A stretch of 64,000 bases of DNA. Origin: an uncultured bacterium (lineage in GTDB: Bacteria > Patescibacteriota > Microgenomatia > Levybacterales > UBA12049). The stretch covers positions 64,809 to 128,808 of the forward strand of contig CAWGXL010000011.1 in NCBI GenBank assembly GCA_963826535.1, read 5' to 3'. Of this stretch, positions 9,763-58,086 are shown one piece after another. Made by a program: the position numbers and the translations under genes. A model generated the notes under the pieces. The model ran no database searches. It was not told the DNA's origin and saw nothing but the letters and a program-made list of their open reading frames with translations. The number at the start of each line of letters is the position of its first letter. Position 1 is the first letter of the stretch.

Positions 9763-10905
9763 ATGTATAATGTGTTTATGAAAAGGATATTTCCTTTTTC
9801 TGTAATCTTACTTTTAGTACTTCTTATTTCTTCGGGTTTCTATTCTATTGTTCACGCAGCAGATATTAGAAGCAATAATGATCTCTATATTTTCAATAAG
9901 AGTATTCAGGTTGAGACGCCTGTTACAAATGATTTGGTAGCGGCCGGTGGAGATATTGTAGTTGATAATAATGTTAGCGGAAACATTATGGCTGCAGGCG
10001 GCAATTTGCGGATAAATGGAAATACCGAGGGGAGTGTTAGAGTTGCCGGTGGAAATATTGTTATTGAAGGAAACATTGGACGTGATTTAGTGATTGCCGG
10101 GGGATCTGTAAATATTACAGAAACCGCAACAATCGGAGGAGATCTGCTCTTTACAGGAGGAGAACTTACAATGGAGGGTACTGTAAATGGAAAAGCCATG
10201 ATAAACGGAGGTCAAGCGCGAATCGAAGGAACAGTCAATAAACAAGTAGAAGGAAGTTTAGGTAAGTTAGCCTTGGGGTCTCAATCTGTAATTGGCGGAG
10301 ATCTCCGCTACTCATCCCCCGAAAAAGCGATTATTGAAGAAGGCGCAGTTATTAGAGGCACTCAGCAATATACGCCTGTTGAACGACCTAAAAGTAATGC
10401 TGAACAATTTGGCGGCTTCATATCCGCTTTTTCTTTTTATAAATTGATCACCGATATTATTTTAAGCCTTGCGTTTATTTACTTTTTTGGCGCGTTTCTC
10501 CGGCGTTGTCTCACTAGCATTGGGGTATCACCTTTCAGAAACGCAGCATACGGCTTAGCGTTCCTCATCCTTATACCTTTGGTAAGCGTTTTCCTTTTCA
10601 TCCTTATTTGGTTAGGAATTGCCTCATTCCTCTTTTACATTTTAGTACTTATTATTTCTGTTTTTGTTGCCAAAGTTTTTCTGGGTTGGTTTCTTGTCCG
10701 TTGGTGGTACAGGCGCAGTAAAAAAGAATATGTACTTGACTGGAGAGCCGGGGTTATAGGTCCAATCGCACTCTTTCTTATTATTCTAATTCCGCTTATT
10801 GGATGGTTATTTATCGCGATTTTGTATCTGATAAGTATTGGAGCGGTAATCCGCGAACTTGCAATAGTAGCTCAGACACAACAAATATCCCGCAAAAAGA
10901 AATAG
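9763..10905 (+). CDS. Membrane protein with bactofilin-like beta-helical repeats and a C-terminal polytopic domain
   Basis: Signal/TM at the N-terminus. Repeated AAGG(D/N)IxIxGNxxG units. Four to five C-terminal TM helices. Confidence 0.4.
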   Translation: MYNVFMKRIFPFSVILLLVLLISSGFYSIVHAADIRSNNDLYIFNKSIQVETPVTNDLVAAGGDIVVDNNVSGNIMAAGGNLRINGNTEGSVRVAGGNIVIEGNIGRDLVIAGGSVNITETATIGGDLLFTGGELTMEGTVNGKAMINGGQARIEGTVNKQVEGSLGKLALGSQSVIGGDLRYSSPEKAIIEEGAVIRGTQQYTPVERPKSNAEQFGGFISAFSFYKLITDIILSLAFIYFFGAFLRRCLTSIGVSPFRNAAYGLAFLILIPLVSVFLFILIWLGIASFLFYILVLIISVFVAKVFLGWFLVRWWYRRSKKEYVLDWRAGVIGPIALFLIILIPLIGWLFIAILYLISIGAVIRELAIVAQTQQISRKKK

Positions 10906-10974: not shown

Positions 10975-11883
10975 ATGACTTTTCTTGAAAAATATGAACT
11001 CCTTATAAAATCTATTCCGGTTCCAGCTGTGACGATTGGCCCAGATACCATTGATTGTGAATACGTTGATAATACCTATAGAAGTAAAAACTGCCATTAC
11101 TGTATCAACGGATCAGACCTCATAGGAGGTATATATACAAATTTGGGATTGGGGATTAAACTTGTAGATTGTGCTTCAGTGGTAGAGTCAGAAAAATGTT
11201 ATGAGTGTAATGATTGCAATAAGTGCCACAGCTGCACATACCTAATGGATTGTAACAGCTGTACGGATTGCCATTTTTCTGCTTTTTTAAATTCTTGTAC
11301 TGAATGCTTCGGTTGTGTAGCGTTAACTCATAAGAAGTATTGTATTTTCAATAAACAATACACAAAAGAAGAATATCTAAAAATGATAATAGAATTAAAA
11401 AAAGAAAAGCCGGAAAAAAATCTTGAAAAAATGGTTGAATTGAAACACAAGATACCGCATCCGGCAAGTCAACAAATAAATAACGAGAATTGTCCTTACG
11501 GGGACTATATATATAATTCTAATAATTGTTATTGGTGTTTTAATAGTTACTATTGTGAAAATTCCGGCTATAATTACGTGAGCGGTAGGGTGAATAACTG
11601 TTGGGATCTCTTTTTCTCAGGTGGAAACATAATTAAAAAAACTATTTCTGAGCGTTGTTATGAATTTGTGGATTCTGCTAATTGCTACGATTGTGCATTT
11701 TTAAACCTTTGTGAAAGTTGCACAAATTGCGACTATGGTACGTGGCTTTTAAACTGTTCCGATTGCTTTGGTTGTGTTGGGTTAAAAAATAAAAAGTACT
11801 GTGTTTTAAATAATCAGCTTACGAAAGTGCAATATGATAAAACTGTTAGAGAGATTAAGAATGAGCTTGGATGGAAATCTTAG
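10975..11883 (+). CDS. Cysteine-rich MTFLEKY-family protein (period-3 CxxC repeats), intact copy
   Basis: 302 aa. Shares the N-terminus MTFLEKYxLLxKSIPVPA, central CTDCHFSAFLNSCTxCFGCV...HKKYCIFNKQYTKEEY and C-terminus CVLNNQLTK..EIKNELGWK with five other copies in the window. A TGTTATAAT extended -10 sits at 10921. Confidence 0.7.
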   Translation: MTFLEKYELLIKSIPVPAVTIGPDTIDCEYVDNTYRSKNCHYCINGSDLIGGIYTNLGLGIKLVDCASVVESEKCYECNDCNKCHSCTYLMDCNSCTDCHFSAFLNSCTECFGCVALTHKKYCIFNKQYTKEEYLKMIIELKKEKPEKNLEKMVELKHKIPHPASQQINNENCPYGDYIYNSNNCYWCFNSYYCENSGYNYVSGRVNNCWDLFFSGGNIIKKTISERCYEFVDSANCYDCAFLNLCESCTNCDYGTWLLNCSDCFGCVGLKNKKYCVLNNQLTKVQYDKTVREIKNELGWKS

Positions 11884-11911: not shown

Positions 11912-14900
11912 TTAATTTACTTTCCCATCCGGCTGCATAGCAGTGCCCCCTCCGCCAAAATTTACAGTCCCATTTACTCCATTAGGTGCTTGATATGGAG
12001 GCTGAATACCAGGCTGGTTATTCATTGGCGGTGGTGGAGGTTGGTTTTGAGGTGTACCATTGGCTGGCTGTGGAACATTATTTTGTACAGGAGAGTAGTT
12101 GCCTTGAACCAGAGGCGGATTTTGCCCAGTACCAGACGGTTCAGGATTTTGCGCCGGTGGATTGTTGGGTTGTGAAGGAGGCTGACCTGACTGTCCGTCG
12201 GTAGGATTTTGCTGTCCCTGGCCAAACGGATAGTTCTGACTTGGGTCTGCGGGATTTGTCTGTGGGTTTACCGGCTGACCTACTTCTCCGGCAGGTGGGT
12301 TTTGCCCGGTACCAGGTGGCACCTGGTTATTTGTTTGCTGCGACGCATCCTGGGGTTGAGCTTGCAATTCAGCGGCGGAAGTATTGTTTGATACGTTGTC
12401 AATTGCATTTAAAATCATGATCGCTGTTTCGTCATTTTGTGTTTTTGCTTGATTGAGCTGCTCGATCAATTGCTGAATTTCTTCACTTGTTACCGCATCT
12501 GTCAAATTAAGCAAAGACGTTGCTAATTTATTACCTTTTTGGCTGGCTTCATCTACTTTGGTATGTAAATTCGTATACAACTCTTTTTCATCAGCATTTT
12601 CCGCGGTGATTGGATTGGCAATAAGAAGTAATGGCACTTTTATTTTCATTATTTCATTTTGCTTGATTGCATCCTGAATTGTGGCCAGTATCTCGGCAGC
12701 CAATGGATCGCCTTGATCTTTGGCCTGTTGTAGTTGGGTTTGTAATTGTTCTATGTCGTCATCAGATGTAATATCTGTAATATTTAAAATTTGTTCCGCG
12801 AGGGGATGATTCTGTTTCCCTGCTTCGCTCAGTTTGTCATAAAGATCTGAGAATTTCCTTTTATTTTCAGGTTCGGCTAAATAAAGCGGGTTGCCGAGTT
12901 GCTTCATGAACTTTTTAAATTTAGTTGTGGGATTGGCTTCTAATGCTTCTTCCGAAGCTTTGCTAATTTCACTATTCATGAGTGCGAGAATGTCGGTTGC
13001 CAGTTCGTTTTCAGTATCTTTCCCTTTGTTCAAATCTTCCATTATTTTTTCAATTGCCGATTGAGGCGAATCGGGTTTTAGTTGAAGAATTGCGGTGGCA
13101 ATCACATTGTTGTTCTGGCTTTCAACTACAACTTTATCATGCAGTTCTTTGAATTTATCGCGGGTAGCTACCGATGCTACTGTTTCCGGATTAACTATTG
13201 ATAAGAGAATTTTCTTTTCCCGCTCGATTGCTTTCAGCTGTTGGGCTATACCCGCTGCCAGGTCGAGTATTTCTTTTGCTAACTCGTCACCTTTCTCTTT
13301 CGCATCATTAAGTTTTTGTCTTATATCGCTAATCTCCTTGTCAGGCGTAGACGCGTTTACGGCAAGAATTGCGGCATAAACCGGATTTGCTCCAGTGCCT
13401 GCTGTGACTGTTTCTTTAGTTGCTTTATCTACTTCTGTGCCTGCTGCGGCAGCTTCTGTTTTTGCTTTATCTGCCTCTGTGGGCGCAGGAGTTACATCTG
13501 CGGTTGCTTTATCTATTCCAGTGCTTGCTGAGTTTGTTGCATTGCTTGCTGCGACAACTTTATCGTGTAATTTCTTGAATATTTCCAGGTCGAATCCAGC
13601 TGTTACATCTTCAGGCTTGGCAATTTTCTGTAAAATTACCTTGAATTCGCTATCGGTTAACAGCGTTACATCGCCTGCTTGTCCACCCTTGTTGAAAATG
13701 AATGCATTGATATTTTCATTATAGTCAATAACGATTGTATCCCCCGGCACGAATTTTTTGGAAATGATGGCGAGTGCGATCGGATTTTCTATGGTTGTTT
13801 GGATAAGACGGCGCAGGGGTCTGGCTCCATAGACAGGATCGTATCCATCTTTGGCTAGTTTAGCAATTGCTTTCTCAGTAATTTGTAAATGGAAGCCTTG
13901 CTCCTTTAATAGCCCGGCAGTCTTGGCGATACCAAGCCGCACTATGCCCGCCATGTGCTCAGGGCGAAGCGGCTTAAATATAACTACCTCATCGAAACGG
14001 TTGAGAAGCTCGGGACGTAAGAACTTAATCAGCTCATCTTTGACGATTTTTTGCAGTTCTGTAAATTGCTTGTTTAATTGTTCAGTTGTTAGTTTGACCT
14101 CTTTACCTTGTTTACTTAGGAATTGCTGGATGATAGCGCTCCCGATATTTGAGGTACATATAACTATAGTATTTTTAAAGGAAATAACATTTCCCTTGTT
14201 GTCTGTTAGTCTACCGTCTTCCAGAAGTTGTAATAGAATATTAAAAACGTCGGGATGAGCTTTTTCAATTTCATCAAACAAAACGATTGAGTATGGCTTC
14301 TTTCTAACCGCTTCTGTCAGTACGCCTCCTTCTTCATATCCAACATAGCCCGGAGGCGCGCCTATAAGCTTGGCAACTTCATGCTTTTCCATAAACTCGG
14401 ACATATCCAGACGAGCCATGGCATCATCGCGCCCGAATAATAATTCGGCTAAGGTTTTGGCAAGTTCAGTTTTTCCTACTCCAGTGGGACCAAGAAAGAC
14501 AAAAGAGGCGGTTGGTCTCTGGCCTGATGCGAGTCCAATTCTTCCACGTCGCACTGCTTCGGAAACCGCTACTACAGCTTCTTCTTGGTCGATAAGTCTC
14601 TGATGAATGCGTTCTTCGAGTTTTAGCAATTTTTCACTCTCGTCTTCAGTCAATTTGGTAATGGGAATTCCTGTCCAAGCGCTGACGACTTTCTCAATAT
14701 CGGCTTTTTTCACATCGCTGTCACCCCGTTTGCCTGTGTCTACCTGCAGTTTAACTTCAGCGCATCCCTCATCAAGCAAATCAATAGATTTATCAGGTAG
14801 AAAACGTTCTCCGATATATTTCTTGGCTAGTTTGATTGATTCTTTGAGCGCGTCATCCGGAATTTTAACACGATGGAATTTTTCATATTTTGTACGCAGC

Positions 14901-16276
14901 ACCTTCATCATTTCGAAGGCATTTTCATCACTTGGTTCTTCAGCGGTTACAGGTTGGAAACGGCGCTCAAATGCTTTATCTTTTTCAAAATGCTTGCGGT
15001 ATTCGGTTGTTGTGGTCGCGCCTATAATTTGCAACTGGCCGCGGGCCAGATATGGCTTTACGATATTGGCCGCGTTCATGCCCTCGCTTTCTCCCGCACC
15101 CATAAGAGAATGAATTTCATCTATAAACAGAATAATTGTTCCATTACTACCTAGGACTTCTGTAATTACCCCTTTGATTCTTTCTTCGAATTCGCCTCTA
15201 TGACTTGCACCAGCGACTAATGATGCAACATCCAGTTGAAAGATTCTTTTATTTAATATATCTTTGGGGACAGCATTAGCAACGATTTTTTGCGCTAACC
15301 CTTCGACTATTGCAGTCTTTCCCACACCTGTCTCGCCAATAATAATCGGATTGTTTTTGGTCCTGCGTAAAAGGATATGGAGGATGCGGTCAATTTCTTT
15401 TTCGCGCCCTGCGACAGGATCAAGTTTGCCTTCGCGGGCTTCAGCCGTTAAGTCAATGGCGTATTTTTCTAAAGTTGATTTCCTACCATAACCGCCGGTA
15501 GTTGATTTTGAAAGTTTATCTACAACTACTTCTTTTTTCAGACCAAGTGTTTGCAAAGTTTGTGCGGTTGAGTAATTAGGACCAAAAAGGACTACCAGAA
15601 TATCTTCCGGTGAAATGAAAGTTGATCCACGCATTTTCGCGTCCCGATAAGCTTGGTCAAAAACCTGCTGGGACACATTACTAAGTACCGGCTGACCTTT
15701 GTATGTTCCGACTCTTTCTTTGGCTTGAATTTCTTTGGAAAGCCTGCCTACATCAACCGCAAGTTCACCCAGTAATTTACTTATTTGTTGATCATATAAC
15801 AATCCAAATAATAACTGGTCAGGTTCAATAGATTGCTGATGGATTCTTCTAGATTCTTCTTGTGCGTGCGTTAATACCAGACTTGCTCTTGGATCCAGAT
15901 GTGAAAGGGCTGACGTATCTACTTTTGCAGAGGTGTTACCAAGGGCCGGATTTGTCTGTCCTTTTGGTAATCCGGCGCCAGGATGTCCTTCCGGAGGAGC
16001 TTGTCCTGCTTGTCCTGGGGGTGGATTCCCTGCACTAACAGGTGCTTGATTTTGTTGAGGACCGGCACCCGGTTGAGGAGGCGGTTGTTGTGCTGAATCT
16101 GGCGGTGGTGGCTGCTGATTATTTTGCTGAGGTTGATTTGACCCCTGTGGCGTATTTGCTTGGGCATCCTGGTTATTATATTGTTGATTTGGATCTTGAG
16201 GCGCCGATTGAACAGGTGGCGCCTGGGCTCCTTGTGCTTCCCCGTCTTTTTTTTGATTGAATAATTTTCCAAACAT
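11912..16276 (-). CDS. ClpA/ClpB-type double-AAA+ unfoldase with Pro/Gln-rich disordered tails and a C-terminal about 90-aa helical-repeat region
   Basis: Clp_N-like domain. D1 has Walker [16 protein letters not shown] and Walker [10 protein letters not shown]2 has [35 protein letters not shown] and GARPLRR sensor-2. The linker between D1 and D2 is too short for a ClpB M-domain. No [IVL]G[FL] ClpP-docking loop is seen after [11 protein letters not shown]. Residues about 900-1290 form repeats homologous to the neighbouring giant protein. N- and C-terminal roughly 125-160 aa are P/Q/N/G-rich. Confidence 0.75.
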
Positions 16277-16306: not shown

Positions 16307-19300
16307 TTACTTCTTTGCAATCTCTTCTTCTTCAGAAAGCGCTTTTGGTTCTTCTTCTTTTTTTATTCCCACTTCAACTTTTTCCTCTTTTTCATCTCCC
16401 AGCTTCAACACTGAAATTACTGTTTTTGCGGCTTTAAGTTTGACGTTGAGATAATCACTTATTTCCTGATAAGAGAATCCTCCCAAAAGCAGGAAAGGTA
16501 GAATGGTTCCCACTTTCTTGAGTCCATCATTTTTCTTATCTGTCTCAGGTGCGAGTAAAAGTGCGAGGGTTTCTTTTATTTCCTCAATCTCTTTCGTAAT
16601 CCATTCTATCCTTCCTTGTTTGTCGTCATTGAAGCCGAAAGGTACAGGAAGAGTCCGATAATTTTCTTCCCACATCTTTTCGATTTCCGTATAATCTTTT
16701 TGCGTAACGGATTGCAGTTTATTACTTTGGGGTACATCAGTTGCATTAATTTGAGAATGTGGCGAAACAGAATGTTTTGCTGCGGTTAAAATACTATCCG
16801 CAGTCTTGTCGCCTTTTTGACTTTTTTCGATAAGCTTCTGGCGTAGATTTTCTATTTTTTGCCGATCAGCCGGTATTTGGACATTTGTTGGGGTGGCGAG
16901 GTTTGCAAGTATTACATGCTCTTTGTGCATTTCTGTGATTTGAGATTTATCCCTAGCCAGAGACATGGCTTCATAACGGACTATATCTTTCATGGTCGGG
17001 AGCTTTAGTTCAACCATAGCCAGGATTTCATTGGAGACCTCGGGTGTGACAATGTTGGTGGCCGCAAATGAGGGGGTTGATATTTCAACTGAAGGCGCTT
17101 CTATATTGACTGCCATGGTTTGGGCTGCTTCCGCGTGTTTGGTTGCAACAGATACTTTGGTTTCTTCGTCAAGGGAAATGGATTTGAGAACATCTTTGGC
17201 TGCATCTTGTTTGGTTTGTAGATAAGAGACGATTTCGGATTGAGAGAAGCCTCCGACTAAAAGGAAGGGCAGAATGTTGGCTACTTCAGAGAGTCCCTGA
17301 TTTACTTTATCCTGATCAGCAGAGTTTAAGAGATTGGTTAAATTACCAATTTTCTCAATATCATCCTTAATCCATTCAGTTCTTGTTCCGGCCATGCCTT
17401 CAGGGACTTCCATATTATTGTAGTTTTCTGTCCACATTTTCTTGACATCTGCTAATTCTTCGGGGGTGACAGTTTGGATGCGGTTGGTTGAGGGAAGAGA
17501 TATTGCCTGTGGCAAAGCCCCTAAAACAGAAGTAGCTACAGATTCACCTTTAAGTTTTTCTTCTTTTAATTTATCACTTAATTTTTGGATATCTGCGCTG
17601 GTTGTTGATTTGTTCACGCTCAAGAGAGAAGTGGCAAGCTCATTGCCGCTTTGACTGGATTTGGCTATGGAATCATGTAATTTGGTCAGGCGCTCACGAT
17701 CAACCGGCGAGGAGATAGAGGCCGGATTGGCGATTTGTTGCAAAACTTGTCTAACTTTGTTGGTCTGTACAGATTTATTAACTGTTGACATAACAGAGGT
17801 AGCTAGAAGATTTGCGCCCTGCTGGCCTTTGTCAAGTTGTTCTCGGATCTTTTGCAGATCTGCATTTGAGGTACTATCGTTTACAGAAAGAATAGTACTG
17901 GCAAGTTCATTCTTCTTATCTTTTTCCTTAACTAGTATCTCATGTAACTTTGTGAATGCAACACGTTCCGATTCAGAAGTGACTGAAGCCGGATTGACGA
18001 TTTGCAGGAGAACGTTTTTGAAGTCTGATGATTGAGTTGCGCTAAAAGCCGCTTTTTGCATAGCAGAACTGGCTGCATTTAAAACTATATCCGCAGTTGC
18101 GTTGCCTTTTTGGCTTTCTTCGAGGAGTTTTTCCCGGAGCTTATCAAATCTAACTCTTTCTGTACTGACAGTAGCTGACGCAGGGTTGGCAATTCTTTCA
18201 AGTGTTTCGCGAACTTTTTGCACCTCTCCAAGTTGCGATTTGTCTCGGGACATTGACATGGTCTCAAAGCGGGCAATATCACGCATTCTGGGTAATTTCA
18301 ATTCAACCATAGCCAGGATTTCATTGGAGACCTCGGGTGTGACAATGTTGGTGGCCGCAAATGAGGGGGTTGATATTTCAACTGAAGGCGCTTCTATATT
18401 GACTGCCATGGTTTGGGCTGCTTCCGCGTGTTTGGTTGCAACAGATACTTTGGTTTCTTCGTCAAGGGAAATGGATTTGAGAACATCTTTGGCTGCATCT
18501 TGTTTGGTTTGTAGATAAGAGACGATTTCGGATTGAGAGAAGCCTCCGACTAAAAGGAAGGGCAGAATGTTGGCTACTTCAGAGAGTCCCTGATTTACTT
18601 TATCCTGATCAGCAGAGTTTAAGAGATTGGTTAAATTACCAATTTTCTCAATATCATCCTTAATCCATTCAGTTCTTGTTCCGGCCATGCCTTCAGGGAC
18701 TTCCATATTATTGTAGTTTTCTGTCCACATTTTCTTGACATCTGCTAATTCTTCGGGGGTGACAGTTTGGATGCGGTTTAAGGAAGGGACACTGATGCTT
18801 GCCTGCTGGGCGGCTGTTGCAAGTACATCTGCGGCAACCGATTCACCTTTAGTCTTGGCTTCATTTAATTTGTCACTTAATTTTTGGATATCTGCGCTAG
18901 TGGTTGATTTATTTACAGATAACAGCGAGGTCGCAAGTTCATTTCCCTTCTGACTTTCTTTTGTCAGGGCTTCATGCAGTTTAGTCATTTTTTCTTTATT
19001 AATAGCTGTAGCTGTGGCGGGGTTGGCGATTTGTTGGAGAACGTCTTTGACTTTGGTCATGTTTTGTGATTTTTGTAAACTGCTACTAATTGTTGTAAGT
19101 ACTTGTGAAGACATAGCAGAGTCTTTTGATTGCTGGAGTTTTTCGCTGATTTTTTCAAGCTCTGTTTGTGTTGTGATATCTTTTACTTGCAAGATTTGGC
19201 CTGCTAATTGGTTGTTATTCTCTTTACTTTCGTGTGCAAGCATGTCGTGGAGTTTGGTCATCTTTTCACGATCAGATGAATTGGTAGCTGAAGCCGGGTT

Positions 19301-21523
19301 GGCGATTTGCTGGAGTACGCTTTTAACTTTGGTCATGTTTTGTGCTTTCTGCAGGCTACCATTGATTGTAGAAAGCAACTGCGAGGACATGGTAGATTCT
19401 TTTGATTGCTGGAGTTTTTCGCTGATTTTTTCAAGTTCTGCTTGTGAAGTAGTATCTTTTACTTGCAATATAGAGGATGCAAGTTGATTATTATTCTCTT
19501 TACTTTCATGTGCAAGCATGTCGTGGAGTTTGGTCATCTTTTCACGATCAGATGAATTGGTAACTGAAGCCGGGTTGGCGATTTGCTGGAGTACGCTTTT
19601 AATTTGGGTAGCTCTGACTGCATTGCTTACCTGAGAGGCTGCTGAGTTGCCAACTGTGCTCTCTTTTACTAATTGATCCCTTATTTTGTCAAGTTCATTT
19701 GCTGTGGTTTTGTCGTTAACAGAGAGAATTGAGCTGGCTAATTGATTACTCTTTTCTTTACTTTCCTTCGAGAGCATGTCATGGAGTTGAGACATTCTCT
19801 CACGATCTACAACATTTGATGTTTGGGCCGGATTGGCAATTTGTTTTAGTATGTTTCTCAAATGTGAATCTGAGGCTTGAACGTTTCTTTGTGATTGATT
19901 ATTGGCGGCTGAATTTATAGCATTTAAGATAGTTGTCGCTACGAGATTTCCCTGTTGAGCCTCTCTGACTATTCTTTCATTCATATTTGCATATCTTTCA
20001 CGTTCTATCGTTGAGGTAACCGCGACCGGGTTACCAATTTTTTCAAGCATTTCACTCATCTTCATTACTTCTTGTCTTTGGCTTGCGTTATTGGATGAAA
20101 GCGCGGTGTCGTATCTGGCGATATCCCGCATTGTAGGAAGCGGGATACTTGCAAAACTTAAAACTTCGGCATTTATTTGAGCATGTGGAACAGAATATGT
20201 TAGAGCGGTACCAGCTCCCTGAGTTTCTCTAATTATTTCTTTGGCTGCGCCGCCAGGCCTCATAGTAGGAGTGAGTGCAATTGGAATATTCACCGACTTT
20301 TTTGTAAATGGTAAAGTCAAGGCAGTGCCTCCAGGCTGAGATCCGGGCGGATATCCTGTAGGTGAAGATGGCGGAACCATCTTATTGCCTAATAAAGTAA
20401 CAAGGTTTTTCATCATTGCGTTATCACCGGAAAAGTTAGCAGCGTAGTCTAAAAAGATTTGCAATAAAATCCAGGGAAGTAGAATAACGATCCATAACAT
20501 TATTAGCGCAACAACATAAAGCATGAAAGTCTCTGTAAGATTAACACTGTTGGTCGGAGTAACGAACTGCCTGGGTCCTCCAAGGAGAATATTTACAGCG
20601 GTGGGATATATAATTTTAGTCGGGTCTTGAATAGCGGGATTGACGAACTGTAAGGGAATTGCCTGTCTCCACATAAATACTAAACCCTGGAGGAAAATCG
20701 CGAAGAGCGGACCATATAATAGCCAGCGGAAGAATTCTCCAATCCAAATCTTGCCAGTATTGCGAACCGGATAAAATAAAAGCAGGAGTGGGAATACCGG
20801 GGATACTATTATAAAGAACCATAAAATTATTTTTCTAATCAATAATATGCCTACCATAACATAGTACGTAAGCGCGGTTAATTTAGTCAGTAATAATGAA
20901 ATAAAGGCTGATTCAGCGTTATAATCACCAAGCAGGCGTAATCCGACAAAGTCCTGGTAGTTCCAACCTACAAAGAGTAAGTCTTGATTGGATATGCAGT
21001 CAGGGGGACAATTAGTGGTGCCTGAACGTAAGAAGAATCCTTGTATTAGATCGGTGAATTGATATAGAAATTGCAGTATTGCGTATGACAAGGCAATTAA
21101 TATCAGTACAGCAGTAAATCTGGGAATAAAACGCATAATAGTGAGACTTCTTCCTCTAGAAATTATAATTATCATGGAGGTTGCTAAAATAACCAATATT
21201 AGAAGAGGCAAAACAATATAGAGGACTATTGTCCACCAAAATTGTGCCAATGGATTAGCCGCGTTGTCGCAATTACGATCGGCTACCTTGGTTACACAAA
21301 CCCATTGGTAATTTAGCAATGTCCAGTTTAGGACGTAACCTGATCGAGCAGCGTTTTTGCCAATAAAGGTTACTTCAGGGTCTACTACCCATAACCCTGC
21401 GGCGGGGGATGCTGTTTGTTGTTGGGCCGGGGCGGGAGCTTGTGCATTGGTAACTGCTACCGGATAAACCAAGGAAACAAAACAATATATTATTGCAAGA
21501 AAAATGGGCAGAAATTTTTTCAT
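16307..21523 (-). CDS. Giant (1738 aa) polytopic membrane protein with an array of about 92-aa helical repeats; N-terminal region VirB6/TrbL-like in topology
   Basis: Signal peptide, then at least 6 TM helices in the first roughly 400 aa. Then about 10 repeats of QIANPAxxTNSSDREKMTKLHDMLAHESKENNNQLASSIL...KISEKLQQSK. A large module (IQTVTPEELADVKKMW...LPFLLVGGFSQSEIVSYL) is present 3 times, two of them identical at nucleotide level. Confidence 0.7.
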   Translation of the reverse strand: MKKFLPIFLAIIYCFVSLVYPVAVTNAQAPAPAQQQTASPAAGLWVVDPEVTFIGKNAARSGYVLNWTLLNYQWVCVTKVADRNCDNAANPLAQFWWTIVLYIVLPLLILVILATSMIIIISRGRSLTIMRFIPRFTAVLILIALSYAILQFLYQFTDLIQGFFLRSGTTNCPPDCISNQDLLFVGWNYQDFVGLRLLGDYNAESAFISLLLTKLTALTYYVMVGILLIRKIILWFFIIVSPVFPLLLLFYPVRNTGKIWIGEFFRWLLYGPLFAIFLQGLVFMWRQAIPLQFVNPAIQDPTKIIYPTAVNILLGGPRQFVTPTNSVNLTETFMLYVVALIMLWIVILLPWILLQIFLDYAANFSGDNAMMKNLVTLLGNKMVPPSSPTGYPPGSQPGGTALTLPFTKKSVNIPIALTPTMRPGGAAKEIIRETQGAGTALTYSVPHAQINAEVLSFASIPLPTMRDIARYDTALSSNNASQRQEVMKMSEMLEKIGNPVAVTSTIERERYANMNERIVREAQQGNLVATTILNAINSAANNQSQRNVQASDSHLRNILKQIANPAQTSNVVDRERMSQLHDMLSKESKEKSNQLASSILSVNDKTTANELDKIRDQLVKESTVGNSAASQVSNAVRATQIKSVLQQIANPASVTNSSDREKMTKLHDMLAHESKENNNQLASSILQVKDTTSQAELEKISEKLQQSKESTMSSQLLSTINGSLQKAQNMTKVKSVLQQIANPASATNSSDREKMTKLHDMLAHESKENNNQLAGQILQVKDITTQTELEKISEKLQQSKDSAMSSQVLTTISSSLQKSQNMTKVKDVLQQIANPATATAINKEKMTKLHEALTKESQKGNELATSLLSVNKSTTSADIQKLSDKLNEAKTKGESVAADVLATAAQQASISVPSLNRIQTVTPEELADVKKMWTENYNNMEVPEGMAGTRTEWIKDDIEKIGNLTNLLNSADQDKVNQGLSEVANILPFLLVGGFSQSEIVSYLQTKQDAAKDVLKSISLDEETKVSVATKHAEAAQTMAVNIEAPSVEISTPSFAATNIVTPEVSNEILAMVELKLPRMRDIARFETMSMSRDKSQLGEVQKVRETLERIANPASATVSTERVRFDKLREKLLEESQKGNATADIVLNAASSAMQKAAFSATQSSDFKNVLLQIVNPASVTSESERVAFTKLHEILVKEKDKKNELASTILSVNDSTSNADLQKIREQLDKGQQGANLLATSVMSTVNKSVQTNKVRQVLQQIANPASISSPVDRERLTKLHDSIAKSSQSGNELATSLLSVNKSTTSADIQKLSDKLKEEKLKGESVATSVLGALPQAISLPSTNRIQTVTPEELADVKKMWTENYNNMEVPEGMAGTRTEWIKDDIEKIGNLTNLLNSADQDKVNQGLSEVANILPFLLVGGFSQSEIVSYLQTKQDAAKDVLKSISLDEETKVSVATKHAEAAQTMAVNIEAPSVEISTPSFAATNIVTPEVSNEILAMVELKLPTMKDIVRYEAMSLARDKSQITEMHKEHVILANLATPTNVQIPADRQKIENLRQKLIEKSQKGDKTADSILTAAKHSVSPHSQINATDVPQSNKLQSVTQKDYTEIEKMWEENYRTLPVPFGFNDDKQGRIEWITKEIEEIKETLALLLAPETDKKNDGLKKVGTILPFLLLGGFSYQEISDYLNVKLKAAKTVISVLKLGDEKEEKVEVGIKKEEEPKALSEEEEIAKK
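17009..17487. repeat. Perfect about 479-bp direct repeat inside the giant gene, copy 1
   Basis: Region 17009-17487 is identical to 18302-18780 (offset 1293 nt). This was checked line by line. Antisense ORFs 16992..17225 and 18102..18518 translate identically. Confidence 0.85.
18302..18780. repeat. Perfect about 479-bp direct repeat inside the giant gene, copy 2
   Basis: See copy 1. Encodes the duplicated module VTPEELADVKKMWTENYNNMEVPEGMAGTRTEW.... Confidence 0.85.
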
Positions 21524-32031: not shown

Positions 32032-32341
32032 AATATTGCAAGGAAAAGTTATATCTAATAAAATGAAAGGGACTGCGGTTGTCGAAGTATCCCGAATTTT
32101 TCCTCATCCGTTGTATAAAAAACTTCTAAAAAGAAGCAAAAAATATAAAGTTGATACCAAGGGCGAGAAACTGGAAGTTGGCAAAATAGTGAAAATAATC
32201 GAAACCAGGCCAATTGCCAAAGACAAACACTTTGCGATTTATACAAACGCAAAGAAACCTGTTGTGTCAGCAACAAAAGAAAAAACAACTAAGAGTTTGT
32301 TTGAAAAGCCAAAAAAGTTGTTATCTCGACCGAAGCGATAG
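32024..32341 (+). CDS. rpsQ: 30S ribosomal protein S17
   Basis: KVISNKMKGTAVVEV...KYKVD...ETRPI S17 pattern. Confidence 0.85.
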   Translation: MSKILQGKVISNKMKGTAVVEVSRIFPHPLYKKLLKRSKKYKVDTKGEKLEVGKIVKIIETRPIAKDKHFAIYTNAKKPVVSATKEKTTKSLFEKPKKLLSRPKR

Positions 32342-32453
32342 CGTAGTGGAGAGATCTCACCCCACAAAGTTGCTAGGTGGTATGAGATTCACCCAAAGGG
32401 TACTATCCACTTTGTGGTGTCGCCTAGACTCCTGTTGGTCGCTCGGAATGACA
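32342..32453. repeat. MITE-like palindromic element, copy 1 (truncated left end), family with GTCATT...AATGAC termini
   Basis: Region 32342-32453 is a near reverse-complement match to 46229-46341 (shared cgtagtggagRgatctca and ggtcgctcgRaatgaca blocks). It starts at the rpsQ stop codon. Confidence 0.55.
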
Positions 32454-44390: not shown

Positions 44391-46205
44391 ATGGCTTCTA
44401 CAAAAGCAATTAAAGCAGGATACTCTGCAAAACTCGACGGCAAGGCTGCTTATATTCGCAATTATCTTTCAGATAGTAGTTTAAATAAAATAAAAGTTTT
44501 GCGAACTCATCAAGGGATTGCTGATTTTTGTTACAAAAATAGCTCCACTTTCAAGAAAGATTTTTTAAGCCGTATTGGAGTAAAAAAATTAAAAACTTAC
44601 CGCAGCCATGTTGATAAAAAGGAACTCGAAGATTTTATAATGCGATTATCCCAGTTCGATGGCGAGTGCGTTTTCCTGCTAAAAGATACTTTTGATTTAC
44701 TCAATTCTTATCAAGAAAAAACAGGTAAGGGTTCCGGCATTTTGGTAAATAGAAACTTTCTTTGCAGAAGAGAAGAGGATTATTTTTCGTTGATTGAGAT
44801 TATCTATAAATCCCTAGCTCAATCAGTTAACATAAATGATTTTTCAGAAAAATATTTTGCTCTATTCCATCAATTACTACAAAAAAACCCACATTTTCTA
44901 GATAAAGCAAAAAAGCTCTTTGAGTACGTATTAGCCCACACGAGCAAGCAAAAGATTATTTTTGTTGACATGGGATTTCAGTTTACCTTCTCACTTTTCT
45001 GTGTTGCAGCAAGCAGGTATTTCGGTAATGGGAAAATATGCACTGATTTTTATAGTTTTTCGACTTATACCTGGTTACAAGAGTTTTTTAAAAATAAATA
45101 TTTTTCCGCAAAGAGTGAGGTTGTTTTAGAATTAGAACTTGAAGCAATTGAGAATTTTCAAAACTCTTTACAGAACAAGGCATCCGGGGCAATGGTTGGA
45201 TTTGCAATTGGCGATGCCCTTGGTTTTCCGGTCGCAGGAATTGATAAAAGAGATATTTTAAAATTCGTTAAAGGAGAAATTGGCTCGTTTTTAGAAAATA
45301 AAAAGCACCCATTTTTTAATAATCTAAAGAAAGGGCAGTACACGGATAATACTAAATTATTGATGATTTCTGCAAAGCATCTAATTAAAAATGGTGATTT
45401 TGTGATTGAAAAATATCAGAATAATTTAGCAAACTGGGGTAAAAAAATTTTGCGCAATCCTCACACTGAAAGGTGGGCAGGGCCTACAGCGATAAAAGCT
45501 GTTAAAAATTTGATCGACGGAAAAAGTTATCTTGATTCCGGCTCAACTACAACCGAATCATGTTCTGCAACGTATCGAGTAATTCCTTTGGGCATTTTCA
45601 ATCATCCTTTTGCAAAGAATGGAATTGATAAGCTAAAAAATTCTGCTGAAATTTCGGCTATGATTACTCATAATTCCGAAATTTCTAAGACAGGAGCAGC
45701 AATAACAGCTTTTATTATTGGAGATTTGATGTGCGGCATAATTCCTGAAAAAGCGGTTAATGCTTCCCTATTGGAAGTTGGCGAGACGGGTAAAAATAAA
45801 CTCTTGATTGAGAAAATACGGCAAGCTGTAGATTTCAGTAAAACTAAAGGGGTTGAATTTGGCAGAAATGAATTCGGAACAGGATCCCCTATTTATCAAA
45901 CACTACCGCTTGCTATTTTCTGTTTTCTTAAATTTCAGAATGATTTTGAAAAAGCAGTTATTGCAGCGGCAAATTCATTTCGGGACGATTCGCTAGAGGA
46001 GAAAAAGCGATTGCAAAAATATTCCTGGGAGGAACAATTGCAGAATGCAAAAGGTGGAAATACAGATGGTATAGCCGGTTTGACGGGCGCTTTTGTTGGC
46101 GCACATCTTGGTGTCAGTAAAATACCAAGAAAATTTTTGGGTATCGAAGACGAAAAAATGCTCGAGACACTTGGCAAGAAACTATTGTACATTAAGATAA
46201 TCTGA
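44391..46205 (+). CDS. Two-part protein: unknown N-terminal about 250 aa plus C-terminal ADP-ribosylglycohydrolase (ARH/DraG-like) domain
   Basis: GFAIGDALGFPVAG and YTDNTKLLMIS match the ARH family GDALG and TDDT metal-site motifs. Starts 10 nt after rpsI. Confidence 0.55.
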   Translation: MASTKAIKAGYSAKLDGKAAYIRNYLSDSSLNKIKVLRTHQGIADFCYKNSSTFKKDFLSRIGVKKLKTYRSHVDKKELEDFIMRLSQFDGECVFLLKDTFDLLNSYQEKTGKGSGILVNRNFLCRREEDYFSLIEIIYKSLAQSVNINDFSEKYFALFHQLLQKNPHFLDKAKKLFEYVLAHTSKQKIIFVDMGFQFTFSLFCVAASRYFGNGKICTDFYSFSTYTWLQEFFKNKYFSAKSEVVLELELEAIENFQNSLQNKASGAMVGFAIGDALGFPVAGIDKRDILKFVKGEIGSFLENKKHPFFNNLKKGQYTDNTKLLMISAKHLIKNGDFVIEKYQNNLANWGKKILRNPHTERWAGPTAIKAVKNLIDGKSYLDSGSTTTESCSATYRVIPLGIFNHPFAKNGIDKLKNSAEISAMITHNSEISKTGAAITAFIIGDLMCGIIPEKAVNASLLEVGETGKNKLLIEKIRQAVDFSKTKGVEFGRNEFGTGSPIYQTLPLAIFCFLKFQNDFEKAVIAAANSFRDDSLEEKKRLQKYSWEEQLQNAKGGNTDGIAGLTGAFVGAHLGVSKIPRKFLGIEDEKMLETLGKKLLYIKII

Positions 46206-46228
46206 AAAGGCCCTATTATGCATCAATT

Positions 46229-46341
46229 GTCATTTCGAGCGACCAAAGGGAGTCGAGAAATCTCATCGTACATGCAAAATCAAATTCTGTCTTTTCGGTC
46301 TAATCAGTGGTATGAGATCCCTCCACTACGGTCGGGATGAC
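46229..46341. repeat. MITE-like palindromic element, full copy (tgtcatttcgagcgacc ... ggtcgggatgaca)
   Basis: Imperfect terminal inverted repeats. Reverse-complement match to 32342-32453. Confidence 0.55.
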
Positions 46342-46350
46342 AAAAGGAGA

Positions 46351-47256
46351 CTATTCCACCCACCCTAATTCTATTTTGATCTCTTTTACAGACTTTTCAT
46401 ATTGGTCTTTGGTCAACTGATTGTTTAAGATACAATATTTTTTATTTTTTAATCCCACACAACCGAAGCAGTCGGAGCAATTTTTAAGATACGCGCCATA
46501 GTGGCAATTTGTACAACTAAAAGAAAAACTTAGAAAGACACAATTATAGCAACAGTCTGTCCATACATGTTCATAGCATTGCTCTGAAATTTTTTTTGAT
46601 TCTGTGTCCCCTCCGGCAAAATACATATCCCAACAGTTTTTCATCATGCCAGCTTGATAACTATAACCGGAGTTTTCAGCGTAATAAACCGCAAAGCACC
46701 AATAACAATTTTTTGAATCATAGATATAATTTCCATATATACAATTCTCGCTATTGAACTGCTGGTTTGCCGGATGCGGTATCTTTTCTTTTAATTCAAG
46801 CAGTTGAGCAAGGATCTTTTCCGGTTTTTCTTTCTTTAATTCTTCTAACTTTTTCAGATATTCCTCTTTCGTATATTGTTTGTTGAAAATACAATATTTT
46901 TTATGAGTAAGACCAACGCAACCGAAGCAGTCAGTACAAGAGTTTAAAAAGGCAGAGTAATGGCAATCTGTACAATTATTACATTCGATAAGGTATGTGC
47001 AACTATGAGATTTTGTACATTCAATACTTTGAAAACACTTCTCCGATTCAAAAACGGACGTACAATCTACGAGGCTCGTACCCATACTACGATTCGCATA
47101 AATACTGTCATAAAGTCTGTATGAATCAAAGCAGTAATAACTGTTCTTACTAATATCGACCATATCTACATATTCACAAGCAACATTATCTCTAATCATT
47201 ACAGCCGGCACGGGAACAGATTTTTTTAGGAGCGCATATTTTTCAAGGAAGGTCAT
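46351..47256 (-). CDS. Cysteine-rich MTFLEKY-family protein (array position A)
   Basis: 301 aa. Family N- and C-termini. 3' end and upstream region are nucleotide-identical to paralogs. Confidence 0.7.
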   Translation of the reverse strand: MTFLEKYALLKKSVPVPAVMIRDNVACEYVDMVDISKNSYYCFDSYRLYDSIYANRSMGTSLVDCTSVFESEKCFQSIECTKSHSCTYLIECNNCTDCHYSAFLNSCTDCFGCVGLTHKKYCIFNKQYTKEEYLKKLEELKKEKPEKILAQLLELKEKIPHPANQQFNSENCIYGNYIYDSKNCYWCFAVYYAENSGYSYQAGMMKNCWDMYFAGGDTESKKISEQCYEHVWTDCCYNCVFLSFSFSCTNCHYGAYLKNCSDCFGCVGLKNKKYCILNNQLTKDQYEKSVKEIKIELGWVE

Positions 47257-47288
47257 TGATCGATATTATAGCAGTAATTTATTGTTGA

Positions 47289-48197
47289 TTATATTTTCCA
47301 CCCTAATTCTATTTTGATCTCTTTTACAGACTTTTCGTATTGTTCTTTGGTTAGCTGATTATTTAAAATACAATATTTTTTTTTGGAGAGTCCTACGCAT
47401 CCGAAGCAGTCGGTGGAGTTCCTAAGATCTGCGCTATAGTAGCAATGCGTGCAATACTCAGAATTGTTTAAATACGCACATTCATAATTAGCATCAGAAT
47501 CAGTAATTTCATAACAGCGTTCAGAAAAAATTCTTTTGTTTACATCTCCTCCGTTATAAAAGCCATCCCAGCAGTTTTTCAACAGTCCTCCTATTGTTAA
47601 ATAACCAGAATTTTCACTTTCGTAACTGTTAAAGCACCAATAGCAGTTTTTTGAATCATACATGTAATTTCCATATAGGCAATTTTCACTATTGAACTGC
47701 TGGCTTGCTGGATGGGGGATTTTTTGTTTTAAATCAAACATTTTCTTGAGTAAGTTATCATGCTTCTCTTTTTTCAATTCATCAACCTTTTTCAGATATT
47801 CCTCTTTAGAGTACTGCTTATTAAAAATGCAATATTTTTTGTGTGTTAAGCCAATACAGCCGAAGCAATTTGTGCAATTGTTTAAATAAGCCGATAAATG
47901 ACAATCAGTAGAATTGTTTGAATCAAAAATATAAGTGCAGCTATGGCATTTAGTTGAGTCAACTGACTCGTAGCATTTTTCTGATTCCATTTGTACAAAA
48001 GTACAATCTACAAGTTTATTCCCCCAGCAATAGTAACAATATATACTATCTACGAGCAAATAACAGCCGATGCTATAATAGCAATTTTTACTGCTATAAC
48101 AATAATCTACGTAGTGACAATCAATTGAATGGGTACCAATTGCAGCCGGGACAGGAATTGATTTTTTAAGGAGTTGGTATTTTTCAATGAATGTCAT
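47289..48197 (-). CDS. Cysteine-rich MTFLEKY-family protein (array position B)
   Basis: 302 aa. Shares the upstream block ttaagaagtatgccttatttaaac with copy B'. Confidence 0.7.
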   Translation of the reverse strand: MTFIEKYQLLKKSIPVPAAIGTHSIDCHYVDYCYSSKNCYYSIGCYLLVDSIYCYYCWGNKLVDCTFVQMESEKCYESVDSTKCHSCTYIFDSNNSTDCHLSAYLNNCTNCFGCIGLTHKKYCIFNKQYSKEEYLKKVDELKKEKHDNLLKKMFDLKQKIPHPASQQFNSENCLYGNYMYDSKNCYWCFNSYESENSGYLTIGGLLKNCWDGFYNGGDVNKRIFSERCYEITDSDANYECAYLNNSEYCTHCYYSADLRNSTDCFGCVGLSKKKYCILNNQLTKEQYEKSVKEIKIELGWKI

Positions 48198-48345
48198 AAT
48201 TCAGTTAAGAAGTATGCCTTATTTAAACATACAAGTTGGGTATTTACAAGCAAAAATAATAAGTGCATGAAAGTTTTGCTTGACTAGAGTTTAGGATGGG
48301 TAAAAACTTTGTAGTTTATTATAAATTACTAATTATTTGCAATAA

Positions 48346-49258
48346 TTAATATTTCCACCCAAGCTCTTTTTTTATAATTTTTACTGCTTTTTCGTATTGT
48401 TCTTTTGTAAGCTGATTATTCAAAATACAGTATTTTTTATTCTTAAGTCCCACACAGCCGAAGCAGTCTGTGCAGTTTGTAAGATCTGCGCTATGGTAAC
48501 AATTCGTGTTATTCTCAGAATTATATAAATAGGCGCATTCATAATTACATCTGGATTCAGTCAATTCATAACATCGCTCTGACTTTGTTTTGGTACCAGG
48601 AATCCCACCAGAGCGAAACATATCCCAACATTTTATTGCACTAGCAATAACAAATATATAGCCGGAATCTTCGCTATAAAATGCGCTAAAACTCCAAAAA
48701 CAATTTTTGGAGTCATATAAATAATTCCCATAAGGAGAATTTTCAGTGTTGGACTGCTGGCTTGCGGGATGTGGGATTTGTTTTTTTAATTCATTCATTC
48801 GCTCAAGAATTTTTTCCGGCTTTTCTTTTTTTAATTCAGAAAGTTTTTTAAAATACTCATCTTTTTTATATTGTTTATTAAATATGCAATACTTCTTGTG
48901 GCTTAGAGCAACACAACCAAAGCAATCTGTGCATGAGTTTAATAAAGCGGAAAAATGACAGTCTGTACTGTTATTGCATTCTATAAGATATGTAGAGCTA
49001 TAGCACTTTGTACATGCAACACATTCATAGCAGTTTTCAGACTCATACAAATATGAGCATTCAACAAGATTATTACTGGCGGCACAGAAATAAGTATAAA
49101 TACAGTACTCGAAGAGTGCTCCCGTCAAAACAGTAATAGCAATTTTTACTTCTGTATGTACCGTCTACATATTCACTGTCAACGGTATACGGACCAATCG
49201 ACACAGATTGAACGGGGATGGATTTTTTTAGGAGTTGGTATTTTTCAAGAAAGGTCAT
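48346..49258 (-). pseudogene. Cysteine-rich MTFLEKY-family paralog (array position A'), frameshifted near the 5' end
   Basis: Family N-terminus MTFLEKYQLLKKSIPVQSV lies in ORF 49073..49258. The remainder lies in ORF 48346..49128 in another frame. Confidence 0.6.
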
Positions 49259-49290
49259 AGATCGATATTATAGCAGTAATTTATTGATGA

Positions 49291-50199
49291 TTATATTTTC
49301 CACCCTAATTCTTTTTTTATTTCTTTTACAGATTTTTCATATTGTTCTTTGGTTAACTGATTATTTAATATACAATATTTTTTTTTGGAGAGTCCTACGC
49401 AACCAAAACAGTCTGTGCAGTTTCTGAGATCGGCGCTGTAATTACAATTCGTGTTATATTCGGAATTGTTTAAATACGCACATTCATAATTAGCATCTGA
49501 ATCAATACATTCATAACAGCGCTCAGAGAAAATTTTCTTGTTCCAATCGCCTCCACAATAAAAGAGTTCCCAACTATTTTTCATTAAGCCGCTCATGCTA
49601 AAATATCCGGAATTTTCACACTCATAACTATTAAATGCCCAGTAACAATTTTTTGAATCATAAATATAATTTCCATAAAGACAGTTCTCAGTGTTGAATT
49701 GTTGGCTTGCTGGATGCGGTATACTTTTCTTCAATTCAAACATTCTCTTGAGTAGTATTTCAGGATTTTCTTTTTTTAACTCTCGGACCCTTTTAACATA
49801 CTCTTCTTTACTGTACTGTTTATTAAAGATGCAGTATTTTTTGTGTGTCAGCGCAACACAACCGAAGCAATCTGTACATTTGTTTAAATATGCCGAGAAA
49901 TGACAATCAGTAGAATTGTTTGAATCAAAAATATAAGTGCAGCTATGGCATTTAGTTGAGTCAACTGACTCGTAGCATTTTTCTGATTTCACCTGTACAT
50001 AAGTACAATCTACAAGTTTATTTCCCCAGCAATAGTACGAATATAAACCATCTACTTGTAAAAAACAGCCAATACTATAATGACAATTTTTACTACTGTA
50101 GCAATAATCCACATAGTCACAATCAACCGAATGAGAACCTATATAAGCCGGCACAGGAATGGATTTTTTTAGGAGTTGGTATTTTTCAAGGAAGGTCAT
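49291..50199 (-). CDS. Cysteine-rich MTFLEKY-family protein (array position B')
   Basis: 302 aa. Highly similar to 47289..48197, including the flanking non-coding sequence. Confidence 0.7.
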   Translation of the reverse strand: MTFLEKYQLLKKSIPVPAYIGSHSVDCDYVDYCYSSKNCHYSIGCFLQVDGLYSYYCWGNKLVDCTYVQVKSEKCYESVDSTKCHSCTYIFDSNNSTDCHFSAYLNKCTDCFGCVALTHKKYCIFNKQYSKEEYVKRVRELKKENPEILLKRMFELKKSIPHPASQQFNTENCLYGNYIYDSKNCYWAFNSYECENSGYFSMSGLMKNSWELFYCGGDWNKKIFSERCYECIDSDANYECAYLNNSEYNTNCNYSADLRNCTDCFGCVGLSKKKYCILNNQLTKEQYEKSVKEIKKELGWKI

Positions 50200-50290
50200 A
50201 TTTTGATTAAGAAGTATGCCTTATTTAAACACACAAGGCGGGTATTTACAAGCAAAAATTAAATAACTACTCACTTAGTAACCAAAAATT

Positions 50291-50383
50291 GTCATTGCGA
50301 GGAGCACCCCGCTGAGCGGGGGCGACGAAGCAATCTCCATTAACAATGGGATTGCCGCGCTCTCCCGATTTAATCGGGATCGC
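50291..50383. repeat. MITE-like palindromic element (gtcattgcgag ... ctcgcaatgac) containing the cccgatttaatcggg hairpin
   Basis: 11-nt perfect terminal inverted repeats. Internal hairpins cccgctgagcggg and cccgatttaatcggg. Lies 69 nt upstream of metG. Confidence 0.55.
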
Positions 50384-50451
50384 TCGCAATGACATCCAGT
50401 GAGCAGGTAGAATATGAAACCTTGTGTATCTAGCTTCAGTCTGATAAAATT

Positions 50452-57769: not shown

Positions 57770-58086
57770 AATAAATCCTCTTATCCGACCCTATATCTTA
57801 TCCAAATGTACGCTTGGAACGAGCACGCAAAGGCGCCAATTCGGATATAGGGTCTTTGTAAGGTAATTATAGATTATCTATGTAAATATATCAATATATA
57901 TCAAGAATACTAAATTAATCAAAGTGGCTCAAAATTCTATGTCTCAATATTATAATCCGGATCGCAAATTAAATCCCTCCCAACTTCCCTTTAGAAAAGG
58001 CAGAGGAAGGATTGCAAGTTCCTTAAGCCTTGATTGTTTTCTGAATCGGTAGAAGCTATAATAAATTTGATTGATTATAAGTCTGA

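Follow-up and report, generated by a model that had tools for sequence, protein, structure and literature searches.

A Cysteine-rich Protein Family Expanded in a Patescibacterial Genome: Predicted Double Beta-helices with Putative Zinc Caps and Paralog-specific Variable Stripes

What kind of protein carries a cysteine at every third residue of its core, and why would one small genome keep so many copies of its gene? The question is raised by a 64,000-nucleotide stretch of DNA from an uncultured bacterium of the Patescibacteriota (contig CAWGXL010000011.1, positions 64,809 to 128,808; hereafter the window), in which an initial annotation had pointed to four adjacent minus-strand genes at 46351-50199 and to further copies at 5144 and 10975, all assigned to one uncharacterised cysteine-rich family. 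Both open reading frames (ORFs) and tblastn searches bear out this inventory, with six family copies in the 64-kb window and no others. Patescibacteria have tiny genomes with few paralogs. We examined the predicted fold of these proteins, the behavior of their cysteines, their variation among paralogs and their wider family, and we weigh the readings that these data allow.

Results

The solitary paralog at 10975-11883 (plus strand) is intact, with 302 residues and 31 cysteines, and is a 100% match to database protein P0001. An AlphaFold2 model of this copy, built with 43 homologs (pLDDT 74, pTM 0.74), places strands about every 12 residues in two beta-solenoid halves (residues ~28-127 and ~173-277), with a helical hairpin at 131-156 and a C-terminal helix at 284-297. 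The halves are 38% identical to one another (E 1e-26), and the protein is therefore an internal duplication. The fold is predicted to be two thin right-handed beta-helices of 12 residues per turn with cysteine-lined cores; every third residue of such a coil would face inward, which accounts for the period-3 cysteines. A check proposed with the initial annotation was to see if the CxxC ladder makes a beta-helix; the answer is affirmative, both from this model and from its best structural match, the antifreeze protein of the beetle Tenebrio (PDB 1ezg, 16% identity), with other ice-binding beta-helices among the weak matches. No signal peptide or transmembrane segment was found, as had been noted before (the maximum 19-residue Kyte-Doolittle window is 1.39), and we take the proteins to be soluble and cytoplasmic on the strength of their sequences. 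Their pI is about 6.5 with no strong net negative charge, and on these grounds we rejected a DNA mimic of the pentapeptide-repeat type.

The description of the family as uncharacterised holds. Short forms such as those of the window gave no match in Pfam, NCBIfam or PADLOC and none in the PDB by sequence or profile, and PHROGs returned a single weak match to a profile whose label names no function (phrog_15341, E 2e-6). The family is nevertheless large. A HMMER search of 1.84 billion cluster representatives yielded 2114 clusters (50% identity) at E values up to 1e-3, and most of these relatives are 540-600 residues long, with their residues ~100-395 matched by the window protein over its full length. 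The phmmer matches to the long forms span query residues 2-298 with E values of 1e-27 to 1e-43, and the cap patterns described below are common to both. Both ends of the long forms consist of treble-clef zinc fingers (PF13451 zf_Tbcl and PF23477 zf_Tbcl_2, roughly TIGR04272), which were their sole matches in searches of Pfam, NCBIfam and PADLOC. When a long form served as the query, at least 7940 clusters at 90% identity were reached, and the named hits are all "hypothetical protein" except for one "Zn ribbon nucleic-acid-binding protein." The long-form model is confident (pLDDT 81, pTM 0.83), with values mostly of 87-96 per block in the zinc fingers and the C-terminal region, and it has no informative neighbor in the PDB. 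Neither PF13451 nor PF23477 occurs in any of the six copies or in the rest of the window; the 300-residue form found here is the bare core, a core-only subfamily of a zinc-finger-flanked family. The initial annotation was silent on this larger patescibacterial family, on the internal duplication and on the fact that two of the six copies are broken.

At least 542 loci were confirmed in a set with one genome per species of the Genome Taxonomy Database (GTDB). They include Peregrinibacteria, Peribacteria, Gracilibacteria, Saccharibacteria and WWE3 as well as, among others, Gottesman-, Ryan-, Lipton-, Nomura-, Magasanik- and Kerfeldbacteria, and the closest named relatives of the window proteins come from Microgenomates-type bacteria (Beckwithbacteria, Roizmanbacteria). 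The few family records labeled as non-Patescibacteria are suspected to be binning errors, and the family has been seen almost exclusively in the Patescibacteria, the bacteria of the candidate phyla radiation. No relatives were found on IMG/VR viral contigs, and no account of the family turned up in full-text searches of the literature. Beta-solenoids are a known class of fold, and these proteins are already in databases under hypothetical names; the family itself, however, is uncharacterised and has no curated model.

Within its own genome the window is only one of many places where the family occurs. At least 28 proteins in the databases that belong to the family map to the window's own 894,453-bp contig, four of them window ORFs, and 22 or more copies lie outside the window in this 0.9-Mb genome. 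Missing from the listed proteins are the products of 46351-47256 and 47289-48197, and the total comes to roughly 30 genes, or ~27 kb and ~3% of the genome. Of the 28 listed proteins, four are truncated (213, 251, 260 and 278 residues). This copy number makes the window genome exceptional; elsewhere, same-strand arrays of 2-7 genes occur in most of the 80 loci examined, and 207 family ORFs were counted in 79 of the 80 loci fetched.

The cysteines fall into two classes. Each window copy has 23-31 of them, 8-10% of all residues, with spacings of 3, 6, 9 and 12 enriched over shuffled sequences (z up to 8.3) and spacings of 1, 2, 4 and 5 essentially absent. The period-3 spacing first reported is confirmed by these counts; "strict" was too strong a word for it, as serine stands at ladder positions in several copies. 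When 427 homologs were aligned to one profile, the period-3 columns proved to hold Cys, Ser, Leu, Val or Ile interchangeably, with cysteine at a frequency of 15-80%. A second set is far better kept: Cys-108, Cys-111 and Cys-114 in 92-96% of the homologs, Cys-267 in 97% and Cys-276 in 86%. Position 123 is cysteine in 65%, and where positions 123 and 276 are not cysteine they are mostly His or Tyr. These residues make up a cap motif, CxxCxxC-x8-(C/H), in which C-C-C-(C/H) is the commonest pattern, and homologs that lack Cys-261 and Cys-264 have Cys-258 in their place. Such strong retention, together with the compensating Cys-258, suggests that the caps are a maintained ligand set, most simply one zinc-type site closing each helix.

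Along the ladders the presence of one cysteine co-varies weakly with that of another (phi at most 0.5). Against a background of 0.03, mean phi is +0.15 at spacing 12, approximately +0.06 at spacings 3, 9 and 15, and -0.12 at spacing 6 (33 column pairs). In the Tenebrio antifreeze protein disulfides join cysteines six residues apart (i/i+6); with cysteines anticorrelated at precisely this spacing, which we use as a proxy for the chemistry, a beetle-type disulfide ladder was rejected. Given the weak co-variation and the avoidance of spacing 6, the ladders look like stacked core residues, with thiols that would be free or loosely metal-bound, rather than a disulfide ladder or an obligatory metal chain.

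The same data bear on two alternative readings. The first is that the proteins are secreted, disulfide-bonded surface proteins of the insect antifreeze type, acting as ice or lattice binders or as adhesins. The structural matches to 1ezg and to other ice-binding beta-helices are what speak for it, and it is contradicted on most of the points tested: besides the anticorrelated spacing-6 cysteines, there is no signal peptide or membrane anchor, the full-length relatives start with a zinc finger, no Thr-x-Thr face is present, and Pfam gave no match, the insect antifreeze repeat included. We regard it as very improbable. The second reading, foreshadowed by the original suggestion of a metal-binding or iron-sulfur repeat protein, is a metal store, metal buffer or iron-sulfur carrier in which the ladders would bind many ions (zinc, copper, iron or clusters) and additional copies would raise capacity. 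The cysteine content, the CxxCxxC runs and the exchange of Cys with His at cap positions are all consistent with it, as is the positive co-occurrence at spacings 3, 9, 12 and 15, which is expected of CxxC-x8-CxxC quartets on adjacent coils; in other genomes, moreover, a winged-helix regulator is often divergently adjacent, with a weak match to the ArsR-type HTH_5 model (E 2.6e-4). However, the ladder cysteines are conserved at only 15-80% and are replaced by Ser and by Leu, Val and Ile, the latter three unable to ligate metal, and the suggestion of a metal-binding repeat is not supported for the ladders; the appearance of a ligand set is limited to the two cap motifs. The co-occurrence is itself weak (means of ~0.05-0.15), B-type paralogs lack four ladder cysteines and are still under purifying selection, neither Fer4 nor any other metal domain was matched, and the stripe described next, which is paralog-specific and conserved between orthologs, would have no role in bulk storage. 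We therefore judge a metal store to be unlikely, if well short of fanciful.

Variation among the paralogs was analyzed in 26 intact copies from the same genome, which are 53-83% identical in pairs (median 61%). It is concentrated at residues 20-37, 44-49, 55-62 and 67-70 of the first half, so that the hypervariable segment originally noticed just after the N terminus reappears in this alignment, and at residues 200-227, 231-237, 244-248 and 256-259 of the second. The entropy of the paralog alignment is autocorrelated at lag 12 (0.40 and 0.43 in the two halves), from which it follows that each coil has a constant half, reading N-C-x-x-C, and a half at coil positions 6-11 that varies, chiefly in the first four or five coils of the two helices. 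Between paralogs identity is 27% in this stripe and 72% elsewhere in the protein, whereas the four best cross-genome pairs have 57-68% in the stripe and ~80% elsewhere. Being kept across species in likely orthologs, the stripe appears to carry paralog-specific information, and its pattern fits specificity surfaces better than free drift.

Two further readings meet the evidence here. The proteins might be a conserved housekeeping factor peculiar to these bacteria, for example a nucleic-acid- or ribosome-associated one, with redundant paralogs and the stripe as a tolerant surface. This would suit a family that occurs in nearly all of the patescibacterial lineages sampled with a very stable architecture, is under strong purifying selection, lies mostly among ordinary housekeeping genes, and has zinc fingers and a single source label naming a nucleic-acid-binding protein. 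Redundant copies should not, however, persist at ~30 per 0.9-Mb genome or, across most lineages, in arrays of 2-7, the stripe is far better kept between likely orthologs than between paralogs, and the zinc fingers are missing from the window form, so that we think this reading doubtful. Self-assembly into a structural or cytoskeletal element, with beta-helices stacked into filaments in the manner of bactofilins or curli, would fit the high copy number, and the constant face of each helix could serve as an interface. Yet each helix is capped at both ends, with alpha-helices after the caps that would stand in the way of end-to-end stacking, the long forms end in globular zinc fingers, and no bactofilin match was found in Pfam; a filament is accordingly improbable, more so than either the metal store or the housekeeping factor.

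The four neighbors on the minus strand form the array B, A', B', A, a duplicated two-gene unit. Three of them are intact: B (49291-50199), of 302 residues with 26 cysteines and identical to database protein P0035; B' (47289-48197), also of 302 residues; and A (46351-47256), of 301. Paralog A' (48346-49258) is frameshifted near 49112-49125, its ATG at 49258 being followed by a stop after 61 codons and the remainder forming a 260-residue ORF in another frame (48346-49128). The break marks either a pseudogene or an error in the assembly. The other broken copy, at 5144-6051 on the plus strand, has lost one nucleotide in an A-run near 5957-5965, with the result that its ORF ends at 5980 (278 residues) and the C terminus, NNQLTKVQYEKAV...GWKF, runs on in another frame to 6048. 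This run codes for a conserved Lys-Lys of the cap and reads A5 in the 5144 copy as against A6 in intact copies; at the matching site B and B' have an A9 run. The two frameshifts of the window could reflect homopolymer assembly error, real decay or phase variation by slipped-strand mispairing. Identity of the window copies to the one at 10975 is 63-67%, and alignment of the copies confirms the common N- and C-terminal sequences by which the family was first recognized.

The initial annotation had inferred a recent duplication of the two-gene unit. The duplication of the unit stands, and its recent date does not. Aligning the two B-A units gives 83% identity of coding DNA for B/B' and 67% for A/A'; by the Nei-Gojobori method dN is 0.09, dS 1.02 and omega 0.09 for B/B', and dS is saturated in all other pairs. 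With dS near 1 in one pair and saturated in the rest, the duplication is old. That the paralogs are old is also indicated by the 5144 copy, which follows two GH130 genes and is syntenic with a locus of a related genome (L003). All the regional and pairwise estimates of omega that could be made lie at 0.03-0.54, and none exceeds 1. The genes are under purifying selection, and the diversifying selection once proposed for them finds no support in these values; we rejected positive selection accordingly, by a test that the saturation of dS makes weak. Gene conversion, also raised at the outset, is plausible. A 91-nt tract of B (49898-49988, minus strand) is identical to 47896-47986 in B', and by our own estimate the chance of a run of this length in genes 83% identical is ~7e-6. 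Such a tract is so much at odds with the background that local gene conversion between B and B' is its best explanation.

Identical strings flanking the array genes had been reported, and both are real, with exact tracts of 27 and 25 nt; they are, however, promoter-like sequences at the 5' side and not 3' ends. The B-to-A' spacer (49259-49290, minus strand; twin at 47257-47288) contains the 27-nt tract CAATAAATTACTGCTATAATATCGATC. The two 33-nt B-to-A spacers are 94% identical, and TGCTATAAT is located 8 nt ahead of the ATG; upstream of the solitary copies lies TGTTATAAT. The region upstream of B (50200-50262, minus strand; twin at 48198-48260) shares exact tracts of 25 nt (TGTTTAAATAAGGCATACTTCTTAA) and 20 nt (ATTTTTGCTTGTAAATACCC) with its counterpart upstream of B', the two regions being 86% identical, and this conservation would be that of a promoter-like region. 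Just upstream of each copy is an extended -10-like motif, TGnTATAAT, which in A-type genes ends 8 nt before the ATG. With such a motif ahead of the copies, every gene seems to be served by an extended -10 promoter of its own, and the transcripts of A-type genes may have little or no leader; a generic promoter scan did not flag the TGnTATAAT sites upstream of the copies.

Palindromic elements bracket the four-gene array, one immediately outside each end. The element at 50290-50395 (~106 nt, TGTCATTGCGAG...CTCGCAATGACA) lies between the array and a methionyl-tRNA-synthetase-like gene and has a predicted folding energy of -60.8 kcal/mol (z -6.7), and the related element at 46228-46335 (TGTCATCCCGACC...GGTCGCTCGAAATGACA) lies just downstream of the last array gene. 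A third copy is found at 32319-32453. The elements are ~105-140 nt long with termini TGTCATyyCGAs...sTCGrrATGACA, and their seed pattern has 4 matches as against 0.09 expected. They could be elements resembling miniature inverted-repeat transposable elements (MITEs) or repetitive extragenic palindromes (REPs), or else terminators or recombination sites.

A census of 144 ORFs adjoining family genes in other patescibacterial loci returned as recurrent neighbors a TrmB-type winged-helix regulator (12 of 144, usually divergent), a TrwB/TraD/VirD4-like ATPase (8), Fic (4) and ORF6N (3), the rest being ordinary genes. The TrwB/TraD/VirD4-like or HerA-like ATPases lie by arrays in loci L014, L027, L038, L042, L063 and L071, among others, and one TraD-like ATPase that we scanned carries zf_Tbcl_2 and also matches the PADLOC model mad8 (E 2e-16). 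No TrmB, TraD-like or zinc-finger gene was found near the window copies, nor Fic or ORF6N in the window.

Several other features of the window lie beside family genes. Ahead of the 5144 copy are two tandem genes (1349-3169 and 3173-5107), each matching GH130 (beta-1,4-mannooligosaccharide phosphorylase) in two stretches. Just upstream of the 10975 copy, the ORF at 9763-10905 (plus strand, 380 residues) has Gly-rich repeats resembling those of bactofilins (GG-I-V-N-V-G) and, after them, hydrophobic segments toward the C terminus, with no Pfam match at E 0.01. Downstream of the same copy are two very large minus-strand ORFs of 1454 and 1738 residues (11912-16276 and 16307-21523), the first of which, when its translation is read by eye, resembles an AAA+ ATPase of the Clp type whose tails are long and rich in Gln and Pro and whose C-terminal extension is repetitive. 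Adjoining the array, the ORF at 44391-46205 (plus strand, 604 residues) has an ADP-ribosylglycohydrolase domain at residues 266-530 after ~260 unannotated N-terminal residues. The sole Rfam match in the window is a DUF3800-IX RNA at 57783-57854 (minus strand; 39.2 bits, E 8e-5, above the gathering score), and no tRNA genes were found in the window.

Discussion

Taken together, these data lead us to favor a repertoire of intracellular binding scaffolds built on cysteine-ladder beta-helices with probable zinc caps, a tentative reading that we put nearly level with the chance of its being wrong. Its structural and evolutionary side is well supported, namely the class of fold, the periodicity, the pattern of conservation, the size of the family, the arrays and the age of the duplication; the zinc caps, the binding role and the kind of ligand are inferred. 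Each gene product is predicted to be a soluble cytoplasmic protein made of one module duplicated internally, the module consisting of a thin right-handed beta-helix, a C-x2-C-x2-C-x8-(C/H) cap and then an alpha-helix. The narrow core would take small and medium side chains, here mostly cysteines stacked from coil to coil, and each cap would probably bind one zinc-type ion. The ~30 copies may then act as rigid scaffolds with paralog-specific recognition stripes, and the ligand could be a nucleic acid or a protein, since the full-length relatives have treble-clef zinc fingers at both ends; in most lineages the zinc fingers tethered to the scaffolds may themselves bind nucleic acid. The array arose by an old duplication of two genes, each apparently with its own promoter, followed by occasional patches of conversion and the decay of some copies.

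Several points weigh against this proposal. Confidence in the helix regions of the model is moderate (59-87 per block). The comparison of stripes between genomes covers four pairs, for which orthology was assigned by best hit alone, and with dN/dS never above 1 the stripe could be a surface under low constraint. The window proteins have no zinc fingers, so a role in nucleic acid binding may not carry over to them. A fixed operon partner was considered and rejected, as no neighbor in the census is constant, and we know of no ligand, partner or activity for any member of the family.

A more specific version of the scaffold proposal is a lineage-specific intracellular recognition system, in which germline-encoded binders would sense or neutralize foreign proteins or nucleic acids of hosts, phages or competitors. 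We consider this rather unlikely, somewhat more so than the metal store. If true, the genome would have expanded a bare recognition core to ~3% of its coding capacity. Another, exotic possibility is that metal ions are lined up in a chain along the stacked thiols. With ~30 copies here and arrays across most patescibacterial lineages, the family is probably important to the biology of these bacteria. The predicted fold would give bacteria a cytoplasmic equivalent of the insect antifreeze beta-helix, one stabilized by stacked free or metal-bound thiols instead of disulfides; it is unusual and of interest for protein design and for how very thin solenoids hold together. The pattern of constant face and variable stripe offers a testable handle on function, for which the 300-residue core is a minimal construct.

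Comparison with Known Systems

The true homologs of the window proteins are the long-form patescibacterial proteins of ~550-600 residues (for example P0129, P0175 and MBI2888866.1 from Liptonbacteria), in which zinc fingers are followed by the double beta-helix, a C-terminal region and more zinc fingers. Both cap motifs and the tandem same-strand arrays are common to the two forms. Absent from the window form are the two zinc fingers at the N terminus and a stretch of ~170-200 residues that extends the long forms at the C terminus. The window form has more cysteines in the shared module (~28.6 as against 23.5) and occurs in ~30 scattered copies, whereas the long forms occur in one array.

The closest likeness in fold, as modeled here, is to the Tenebrio antifreeze protein, also a cysteine-rich right-handed beta-helix with 12 residues per coil. 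In contrast to it, the window proteins have up to four inward cysteines per coil, stacked coil on coil, and are cytoplasmic, internally duplicated and capped by CxxCxxC-x8-(C/H); identity is 16%, with no profile match to the insect antifreeze repeat, and no Thr-Cys-Thr arrays are visible, the constant face reading N-C-x-x-C. With metallothioneins and other cysteine-rich metal stores they share a high cysteine content and CxxC runs, but they form a regular solenoid rich in Tyr, Phe and Trp in which most cysteines can be dispensed with, Ser, Leu or Val taking their place. Although CxxCxxC is present, the 4Fe-4S ferredoxin motif CxxCxxCxxxCP is not reproduced, as the fourth ligand is 8 residues away and no proline follows, and Pfam gave no Fer4 match. 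Unlike known anti-phage defense proteins, neither short nor long forms match PADLOC.

In organization, the window proteins recall the leucine-rich-repeat variable receptors and the pentapeptide-repeat proteins, which likewise combine a rigid solenoid, a constant face, a stripe that varies with the repeat period and many paralogs. They differ from those repertoires in showing no relationship of sequence or fold family, no evidence of positive selection and no diversification machinery. What is distinctive of the family is the combination of a cytoplasmic location, a doubled helix, flanking zinc fingers, cysteine stacking without the beetle disulfide pattern, gene arrays and, in the present genome, ~30 copies.

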